Notes: generated by a model not told the origin, from the letters alone. Positions 5,911 through 8,313 are shown, counted from the first letter of the stretch. The stretch: 64,000 nt of DNA from Candidatus Latescibacterota bacterium (GCA_965203355.1 OZ241889.1:2208001-2272000), one strand, 5' to 3'. Numbers and translations: made by a program.

Positions 5911-8313
5911 CTATTTGCGCTCGGCGATTTTGCAGACCCAGATGCTGATTTCGTAGAGCAGGAGCAGGGGCAGAGCCATGAGAAGTTGGGAGACCGGATC
6001 GGGCGGCGTGAAAATCGCGCCGAGGACGAAGATGCCGATGATGGCATAGCGGCGGATATGGCGCATCCGCGCGGCGGTCAGTACGCCGACCTTGGCCAAG
6101 AAGAGCGACAGCACCGGCATTTCAAAGACGATGCCAAAGCCGGCTATGAGCCGCAGCACAAAGCCTATGTACTCGTCGGCCGCCCATTGCGAGGTCATGT
6201 CGGGCGGCTCTAGTGCGAGGAAAAAGCGCAGCCCGAGCGGGAGGACGATGTAATAGGCGATCAGGGTGCCGACCGAAAAGCAGAGGACGCTCAGCGAGAT
6301 AATGGGCAGCACGAGCCGTTTCTCGCGCTGCAAAAGCCCTGGGGCGACAAAGTGCCAAGCTTGGTAGAAGATGATCGGCAGGGCCAGCAGCAGCCCGCCG
6401 ACAAAGGCGATTTGCAAGCTGATGAAGAAGTAGGTCATGGGCCGGAGGGCTTGCAGCCGACGCGCTGGGGGCAGGTCGGTGCTGGGCGCGTCCGGTTCGG
6501 GCGCACTATCGGGTGGTCCCAACCACTGACTCACCAGCTTCTTGATCGCCCGCACCGCGCCCGAGGATTGCTGGCTTTCCAAACTGAGGACGGCCTCTTC
6601 GTATGGCCGGGTCAAAAGTTGCACGATCGAGTCGGAGAAGGCAAAGCAGATCACCGCGCCCACGGCGAGCGCGGCTAGGGCCTTGAGAATGCGCCAGCGG
6701 AGTTCTTCGAGGTGGTCGAGAAAGGGCATGTTGGCCGCTCGGGGCGCGTCTGGTGCGGGTTCGTCTTGATCGGCCGTTGGCTCGCGGGTGGGGCGGGGCT
6801 CGCGGAAACGGGCGACAAAAGCGACTAGCGCGATCAGCAGGCAGCCCACGGCGAACAGGTCGCCGTGCCGCGTGTAGAAGGTCGCGGGTTGGCCGACCGG
6901 CACGGTGGCCACGGCGACCGCCGGGGTGAAAAGGTCGGTCGCCTCGTAGGTGCGGCCAAATGGGTCGATGAACAAGGAGATGCCGGTGGTGGCGGAGCGG
7001 GCGATGGCTGTGCGGTTTTCAATGGCGCGCATGGCGTTGATGAGCGCGTGTTGGTAGGGGCCGGCGCTGCGGCCAAACCATGAGTCATTCGTGATATTGA
7101 CCAGTACGCGCGCCCCAGCCGCCACGTGCTGGCGCACCAGATCGGGAAAGATGGACTCAAAGCAGATGAGCACGGCAAAAGGGTGCCGAGGATGGGCAAA
7201 AACCGCATGCTCGGTGCCGCGTGCAAACTCGGCCGGGCCGAGATCGCCAGTCAGGCGGGTCCAGTCGATGTCGCGCAGCAGCGGGATCGCGTCGCGGTAA
7301 GGCGTCCGCTCGCCAAAGGGCACTAAGTGCATCTTAGCGTACGAAGGCAGCGATCCGGCTCCGGGTTGGACGAAGAAGGCTGCGTTGTAGTTGGCGTGCG
7401 GCGCGCCGGTCAGCAAGGGGATGTCCAACTCCTCGACGAGTGCTTGGACGCGGCTTCGGCAACCAGCCTGGCGCACGGGGTCGCACGGCACGGCCGTCTC
7501 GGGCCAGACTAGTAGCTCTGGATCGCGCTTGGCCGCTTGGCGCGAGAGCGTAGCGAGGGCTGAGAAAGTGCGCTCCAGCCCGTTAGGACCCCACTTGTCG
7601 GCGTATGTAGTGTTGGGTTGAATCAGGCCGATGCGCAAGCCCCCGTCCGAGACGGCTGTCGCTAGGGTGCTCTGGGCGTGGAGCCAAGGCAAGAGATAGC
7701 CCAAGGCAACGCCCACGAAAAAGACGCGCCGCTCGACGAGTGCTAGGTAGAGTAGCGCGTTGAGGCCGACGACCCAGCAGGAGACGCCAAAGACACCGGT
7801 CCAAGCGGCGTACTGGATGAAGTGCGGCAAGGCGGCTTGGCTGTGCCCCAATAGGAGCCAAGGAAAACCCAACTCCCCGAGCGAGAGCAGATATTCCTGC
7901 CCGGTCCATAATAAAGGTAGCAGCCCGAGTGCCTTCGCTCCCCACCGTGCGGCGAGCCCGTTGAACAGCCCAGTGCAAAGGCCGGTAAAAAGGCCCAAAT
8001 AAGCGGCCATCAGTCCGGTGCCCCCGACGACGGCCAGCCCGCCGCCTTGGGTATAGGCCACCCAGTACAGGGACAGCAGGTTCCACGCGAACCCGCTGAC
8101 CCAACCCGCGGCAAAGCCCGCTTTGAAGCCGCGATCCTTCAGCACCAGTAGCAAAGGCACCAACGCACAATGGGCCCAGAGTGGATGATAGAGAAAGGCG
8201 AGTGGGTGATCAGGATGGCTGGGAAAAGCCAGTGACAGCAAGGCCCCGCTCAAGGCGGCGAGCAGCAGGCGGGAAAGCGGGGTTAGAGGCAGGACAAGGC
8301 GCGGATTAAACAT
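5911..8313 (-). CDS. lnt-tatC: Fusion of apolipoprotein N-acyltransferase (Lnt) and twin-arginine translocase TatC
   Basis: Lnt motifs GFPW, WPETA, KMHLVPFGE, ICFES and NDSWF; then TatC motifs MPFLDHLEELR, FVAPGL, FEMP, TPPDPVSQ and LLYE, all in one 800-aa frame. Confidence 0.9.
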   Translation of the reverse strand: MFNPRLVLPLTPLSRLLLAALSGALLSLAFPSHPDHPLAFLYHPLWAHCALVPLLLVLKDRGFKAGFAAGWVSGFAWNLLSLYWVAYTQGGGLAVVGGTGLMAAYLGLFTGLCTGLFNGLAARWGAKALGLLPLLWTGQEYLLSLGELGFPWLLLGHSQAALPHFIQYAAWTGVFGVSCWVVGLNALLYLALVERRVFFVGVALGYLLPWLHAQSTLATAVSDGGLRIGLIQPNTTYADKWGPNGLERTFSALATLSRQAAKRDPELLVWPETAVPCDPVRQAGCRSRVQALVEELDIPLLTGAPHANYNAAFFVQPGAGSLPSYAKMHLVPFGERTPYRDAIPLLRDIDWTRLTGDLGPAEFARGTEHAVFAHPRHPFAVLICFESIFPDLVRQHVAAGARVLVNITNDSWFGRSAGPYQHALINAMRAIENRTAIARSATTGISLFIDPFGRTYEATDLFTPAVAVATVPVGQPATFYTRHGDLFAVGCLLIALVAFVARFREPRPTREPTADQDEPAPDAPRAANMPFLDHLEELRWRILKALAALAVGAVICFAFSDSIVQLLTRPYEEAVLSLESQQSSGAVRAIKKLVSQWLGPPDSAPEPDAPSTDLPPARRLQALRPMTYFFISLQIAFVGGLLLALPIIFYQAWHFVAPGLLQREKRLVLPIISLSVLCFSVGTLIAYYIVLPLGLRFFLALEPPDMTSQWAADEYIGFVLRLIAGFGIVFEMPVLSLFLAKVGVLTAARMRHIRRYAIIGIFVLGAIFTPPDPVSQLLMALPLLLLYEISIWVCKIAERK

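Follow-up and report, generated by a model that had tools for sequence, protein, structure and literature searches.

A 64,000-nt stretch of DNA from a Candidatus Latescibacterota bacterium (GCA_965203355.1, OZ241889.1:2208001-2272000), here called the window, carries a gene in which the apolipoprotein N-acyltransferase Lnt is joined in frame to TatC, a protein of the twin-arginine translocation (Tat) system. The gene occupies positions 5911–8313 of the minus strand, the strand of all its features given below, and consists of one open frame of 800 codons whose sole stop is the terminal one (5911–5913). Pfam analysis of the 800-residue product gave three domains: the LNT_N membrane domain at residues 22–187 (7753–8250; PF20154, E 5.3e-27), the periplasmic, nitrilase-like CN_hydrolase domain at residues 228–473 (6895–7632; PF00795, E 3.6e-28), and TatC at residues 533–782 (PF00902, E 1e-70), the last match covering profile positions 1–208 of 208 with 238.3 bits. 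The NCBIfam equivalog models for lnt (TIGR00546, 313.8 bits against a cut-off of 132.9) and tatC (TIGR00945, 211.4 bits against 132.7) were both clearly exceeded. Going by these matches, neither half is unusual for its family, whereas the joined architecture is.

The Lnt part comprises residues 1–503 (6805–8313). Four solved Lnt chains (6q3a, 5n6h, 5xhq and 5vrg) align with approximately residues 15–507, with E values of about 1e-31, and the structure alignment matches Glu272, Lys327 and Cys384 to the catalytic Glu, Lys and Cys of chain 6q3a, whose native numbering we take to be 267/335/387. Glu272 (7498–7500) lies in a WPE motif and is invariant in 22/22 aligned fusions and in 56/56 rows of the Lnt alignment; the assignments of Lys327 (7333–7335) and Cys384 (7162–7164) likewise draw on the fusion and Lnt-row alignments. 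The complete Glu-Lys-Cys triad is kept in all 56 Lnt rows, whether fused, split or free, and the tatC-linked Lnt has it in all 32 fused or split rows. The Lnt half is thus predicted to be an enzymatically competent N-acyltransferase. Its last transmembrane helix (residues 485–503, 6805–6861; hydropathy peak 2.21) falls within the alignment to solved Lnt and is followed by Arg-rich cytoplasmic residues. The linker, residues 504–528 (6730–6804), is rich in Pro, Asp, Glu and Arg, with 6 Pro, 6 Asp/Glu and 4 Arg among its 25 residues; the initial annotation, which had put it at about 28 residues, was close.

The TatC part begins at Met529 (codon at 6727–6729) with the invariant motif MPFLDHLEELR and runs to residue 800 (5914–6729). 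TatC of Aquifex aeolicus (4b4a) aligns with residues 529–572 and 619–800 (E 6.6e-43). Glu537, Glu664 and Glu731 align with Glu9, Glu96 and Glu165 of 4b4a, as counted on the printed alignment, and are kept in 74/74 rows of the TatC alignment; these three correspond to the conserved, functionally important glutamates of the TatC N-terminal region, first cytoplasmic loop and fourth transmembrane helix. A crude hydropathy scan gave six hydrophobic peaks between residues 542 and 796, oriented here by homology to 4b4a. Between the two aligned stretches, residues 573–618 (6460–6597) have no counterpart in Aquifex TatC and form an insertion that lengthens the first periplasmic loop by about 46 residues. 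The enlarged loop noticed in the initial annotation is therefore real, but it follows the clade and not the fusion: it is common to the fused, split and unlinked TatCs of the window's clade and is missing in a second clade of fused proteins and in the outgroup phyla.

Pfam, NCBIfam and the structure alignments thus agree with the initial description of a complete Lnt with an intact E-K-C triad joined in frame to a complete TatC, and the single open frame agrees with a linker free of stops. The C-terminus of Lnt and the N-terminus of TatC are both cytoplasmic in established structures. A cytoplasmic tether would let both halves insert normally, as judged from family knowledge, structure alignment and hydropathy, and the compatible topologies proposed at the outset are borne out on the same grounds. 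The genes flanking the fusion in the window are unrelated housekeeping genes, encoding an aspartate-dehydrogenase-like protein, an aminotransferase, RadC, a bifunctional nuclease and MnmG.

Integrity and distribution of the joined frame

A frame of this kind could arise by an assembly or sequencing error that wrongly joins two adjacent genes. A contig from run X3, made from another sample of the same study, covers positions 5911–7632, linker included, with 0 differences. Run X5, which belongs to another study and is labelled sponge metagenome, gave a contig over the full length of the gene that differs by 59 substitutions and has 0 gaps; the 40 of the 59 substitutions that were listed cause 12 amino-acid changes and no stop. 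Run X4 gave no contig over 6678–6849. The region 6720–6820, for which the initial annotation had asked for read support, is thus bridged without indels by contigs from two further runs. Two-gene relatives do exist, and a few close Lnt-only proteins (P0065, P0081, P0106 and P0107) end in or near the linker, through contig-end cuts or as true splits; yet the frame is held with 0 gaps by contigs from another sample and another study, 82 of the 150 listed tatC matches in the phylum-level group described below lie in open frames of at least 700 aa, several of them on complete chromosomes, and the fused forms make coherent clades. We therefore regard an artefact as extremely improbable, and the in-frame Lnt-TatC fusion is genuine.

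The initial annotation had held that a stop or frameshift in the linker of close relatives would speak against the fusion. Taken literally, such relatives were found, at about 52–71% identity in Lnt, but these are orderly two-gene forms with a tatC start of their own and are not evidence of a mistake in the window's frame.

The domain-architecture search that had been proposed for this gene showed CN_hydrolase and TatC together in one protein in 103 of the best 120 relatives listed from a large protein collection. These proteins have approximately 520–975 residues, reach down to about 38% identity, and carry the source name 'apolipoprotein N-acyltransferase' or, once, TatC. The closest genomes are metagenome-assembled genomes titled mostly Candidatus Latescibacterota and in a few cases Gemmatimonadota, with several complete chromosomes among them. 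The phylum-level group of the closest genome (G001) holds 167 species genomes, 161 of which have tatC. Beyond the 82 long frames, the listed tatC matches of this group fall into frames of 480–699 aa (5), 400–479 aa (9) and less than 400 aa (54).

Outside this group the architecture was searched for among 1.84 billion cluster representatives, where the best 150 matches held only two two-domain proteins, P0039 (the window's own cluster) and P0097 (the second fused clade), although a representative may be an unfused or partial member of its cluster. Since a fusion from another lineage would exceed the cut-off of about 231 bits, the Lnt-TatC architecture appears confined to this lineage. A full-text search of a literature library, covering titles and abstract openings, returned no description of an Lnt-TatC fusion. 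As a side observation, in some genomes of the phylum (loci L097, 2935–4215, plus strand, and L099, 2861–4243, plus strand) the TatC frame stays open for about 200–230 codons upstream of the TatC domain, and that extension has no Pfam match and no lnt.

Origin from a packed gene pair

In 20 sampled genomes of the phylum with tatC in a short frame, lnt lies directly upstream in 9 and 1.9 kb upstream in 1, and is not found within about 3.5 kb in 10. The nine adjacent pairs are tightly packed, with 86–232 nt between approximately Lnt residue 500 and the Met of the MPFL motif. Thirteen further adjacent lnt-tatC pairs could be read from match coordinates, and five loci that had been reported as matching residues 1–800 proved to be split. 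At one locus (L083, genome G109) lnt and tatC share a strand but are separated by about 1.9 kb, which has the look of an insertion into the pair.

The split forms also show where the linker comes from. Of 14 split forms, 12 have an in-frame ATG that precedes the MPFL Met by 22–40 codons and gives TatC an acidic N-terminal extension; in the three same-frame split forms with this ATG, it follows the lnt stop by one codon. TatCs of other phyla also have an ATG ahead of this Met, by about 8–12 codons. Given the upstream tatC start in the split forms, the fused linker corresponds to the C-terminal tail of Lnt plus the acidic extension of TatC. From the gene arrangement we conclude that the fusion descends from a tightly packed lnt-tatC pair that is typical of the phylum, and that many relatives keep as two genes. 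Loss of a single stop codon, or a small indel where the two frames differ, is by this comparison what turns the pair into a fusion.

Trees, made by quick searches, were used to follow the fused state. In the TatC tree (74 rows) the fused forms make up three or more supported groups: 4 changes of the fused label are required, at least 3 of them forced by the starred branches. The window's fused clade of 10 rows is nested there in a 16-row clade with 6 split forms. In the Lnt tree (56 rows) the fused label needs 2 changes; here the window's fused clade arises from within split forms (100*), and two split forms are the sisters of the second fused clade (97*). Forcing all 16 fused rows into a single clade was rejected by the approximately unbiased (AU) test, with a delta lnL of 189.6 and a p-AU of 2e-84. 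On these trees the fused forms are not one clade, and it is more parsimonious to derive them repeatedly from the split state, with some losses possible. That lnt and tatC are adjacent, packed or fused across deep branches, with fused forms outside any single clade, points to a link that is more than chance.

Function of the fused protein

Before a function can be assigned to the joined chain, its translation has to be considered, because the fusion might be genetic only, with TatC made also or mainly as a separate protein, either through a translation start inside the frame at or close to Met529 or through cleavage of the linker. Met529 is invariant in 22/22 aligned fusions and the residue before it varies, as would be expected of a start codon, but the same Met is conserved where it cannot be the start, in split relatives and in other phyla whose TatC begins further upstream. 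The idea that the invariant Met529 marks an internal start is largely rejected for this reason. The search pattern used to collect loci, MPFLDHLE, also biased the sample toward forms containing Met529, and any Met within the linker occurs in only 17 of 95 fused proteins.

The initial annotation had noted that no obvious ribosome-binding site precedes the internal Met. This is true, but it is uninformative, since the fusion's own ATG (8311–8313) also has no Shine-Dalgarno (SD)-like motif. The argument that a missing SD sequence excludes an internal start at Met529 was rejected on the same ground and because SD motifs are rare in the window; the organism uses them little, and so their absence leaves room for an internal start. 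A strong SD-like motif was found near the start of only 11/42 window open reading frames of at least 250 aa, as against 2/38 for the control sets.

The 95 fused proteins have linkers of 20–100 residues (median 40) composed of 16% Pro, 14% Ala, 14% Glu and 12% Asp, with no common motif or conserved length among them. Such a low-complexity linker suggests exposure to proteases, which would fit cleavage. Weighing these points together, we think it improbable that TatC is also or mainly made as a separate protein.

The set of partner genes was then taken from the relatives. Five genomes with the fusion, among them four complete chromosomes, have no TatC match besides the fused gene, and each has one TatA-family match (PF02416) far from the fusion. 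The genes lgt and lspA are single, and both lie far from the fusion gene. Matches to lnt over the 167 genomes number one in 100 genomes, two in 62, three in 1 and none in 4. The genomes with two lnt genes are those of the window's large clade, fused and split alike; genomes of the second fused clade have one lnt each, the fused one. In G001 the second, free Lnt (L100, 419–1933, minus strand; G001:C1 at about 568.3–569.8 kb) has the triad motifs. The extra Lnt forms a deep separate lineage (14 rows, 99*) and is 36% identical to the Lnt part of the fusion in G001. One second-lineage Lnt, of 737 aa (L101, 393–2606, minus strand, genome G105), has a C-terminal tail with a GHSLGG motif; its alpha/beta-hydrolase match of 24.2 bits is below the cut-off of 26.3, and it may be another Lnt fusion.

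The reading that we favour is that Lnt and TatC are made as one chain that does both jobs, N-acylating apolipoproteins and receiving signal peptides as the receptor of a minimal TatA-TatC translocase. A flexible Pro-rich and acidic cytoplasmic tether would join the C-terminal helix of Lnt to the N-terminus of TatC, and the main effect of the fusion would be a fixed 1:1 ratio and a common membrane insertion and location of two housekeeping proteins that were already co-expressed. It would not act as a dedicated substrate channel. We hold this to be probably correct.

Several points weigh against it. The uncut 800-residue chain is read from the gene alone, and the sole TatC and second Lnt are taken over from relatives whose orthologue of the fusion is 91–93% identical. 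The rows of the trees were chosen by hand with fused forms over-represented, and the fused group used in the AU test was named after the tree had been seen. That fusion recurs, and that the linked Lnt is retained where a second Lnt exists, may moreover reflect selection for a joint function.

Such a function could be channeling, in which Lnt is held at the Tat translocon and N-acylates lipoproteins that have been exported in the folded state; in the clade with two Lnts it may even be dedicated to Tat. The linkage of lnt and tatC, by adjacency or fusion, is kept across deep branches without the fused forms being one clade, and the linked Lnt keeps its triad even beside a second Lnt of only 36% identity, both as expected under channeling. 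A review gives both Sec and Tat as routes open to lipoprotein signal peptides, and its available text makes no mention of TatC (PMC8689077). However, genomes of the second fused clade have no other Lnt than the fused one, which there must also serve lipoproteins outside Tat and cannot be Tat-specific. Of the three steps of maturation Lnt carries out the last, once Lgt and LspA have acted, and the genes of those two are unlinked; the linker has neither conserved length nor conserved motif; and close relatives work with two separate genes.

Candidate substrates were looked for with a crude regular expression for N-termini combining a twin-arginine motif with a lipobox, which found 0 in the window and 0 in the window plus 400 kb of G001 (464 kb in total) and is uninformative at this level. 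The same scan of 464 kb gave 11 Sec-type lipoprotein candidates, of which about 5 are plausible. A looser scan for Tat signals gave 1 match, a false positive, and hence no credible Tat signal of any kind by a method that is crude and on a sample that is small.

On balance we consider channeling rather unlikely. Closely related is the proposal that the tatC-linked Lnt is the true Tat partner, present on every TatC, where it would either acylate Tat lipoproteins as they exit or scaffold a minimal TatA-TatC translocase that lacks a separate TatB-like gene. To this we assign a low probability. The corollary that repeated fusion, and retention beside a 'general' Lnt, express selection for physical coupling is to our minds similarly doubtful. 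The favoured reading, a fusion that mainly fixes the stoichiometry and location of two co-expressed proteins, is the one carried into the comparison below.

Comparison with known systems

Lnt and TatC, both textbook proteins, are regarded as having no connection. If the fused frame is translated as one chain, a whole lineage produces no TatC other than one attached behind an Lnt, and in one large clade the only Lnt and the only TatC would be contained in one polypeptide. The N-terminus of TatC, which lies beside the signal-peptide binding site, would then tolerate an attached protein of eight helices. The usual reasoning from gene fusions suggests that some bacteria may couple the maturation of lipoproteins to Tat export. 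Because fused, packed and unlinked forms exist side by side in one phylum, this question of coupling can be tested comparatively. Should the link reflect co-expression only, the locus would still be a clean case of a translationally coupled pair that repeatedly collapses into one gene. The fusion is well documented at the sequence level, and it hints at a connection between lipoprotein maturation and Tat.

Compared with solved Lnt, the Lnt half has the LNT_N domain, the CN_hydrolase domain, the triad and the final transmembrane helix in common, whereas the fusion continues past that helix into TatC. With TatC of Aquifex aeolicus (4b4a, 4hts) the TatC half shares a full-length match, the three hallmark glutamates and, by the crude hydropathy scan, six hydrophobic segments. 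It differs in having an eight-helix enzyme fused ahead of it and a first periplasmic loop longer by about 46 residues, and in that, in relatives, the fused form is the only TatC, accompanied by a single TatA-family gene.

In Actinobacteria that have both Tat-dependent lipoproteins and two Lnt genes, lnt and tatC are not known to be connected either physically or genetically. A familiar precedent for the architecture is the mycobacterial Lnt-Ppm1 fusion, in which Ppm1 follows the cytoplasmic C-terminus of Lnt; related organisms encode Lnt and Ppm1 separately. In both systems another protein is placed on the cytoplasmic Lnt C-terminus, and in both relatives have two genes. The partners differ: Ppm1 is a cytoplasmic glycosyltransferase, whereas TatC is a polytopic membrane protein, and Pfam found no such glycosyltransferase domain after Lnt in the 800-residue product. 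Two other proteins, P0151 (826 aa) and P0187 (842 aa), are Lnt proteins with about 350 C-terminal residues to which no domain is assigned. In P0219 (757 aa) Lnt is followed by a CbiQ membrane domain, likewise a polytopic C-terminal partner but a different one, and this Lnt-CbiQ protein fits an Lnt C-terminus that is easily fused.

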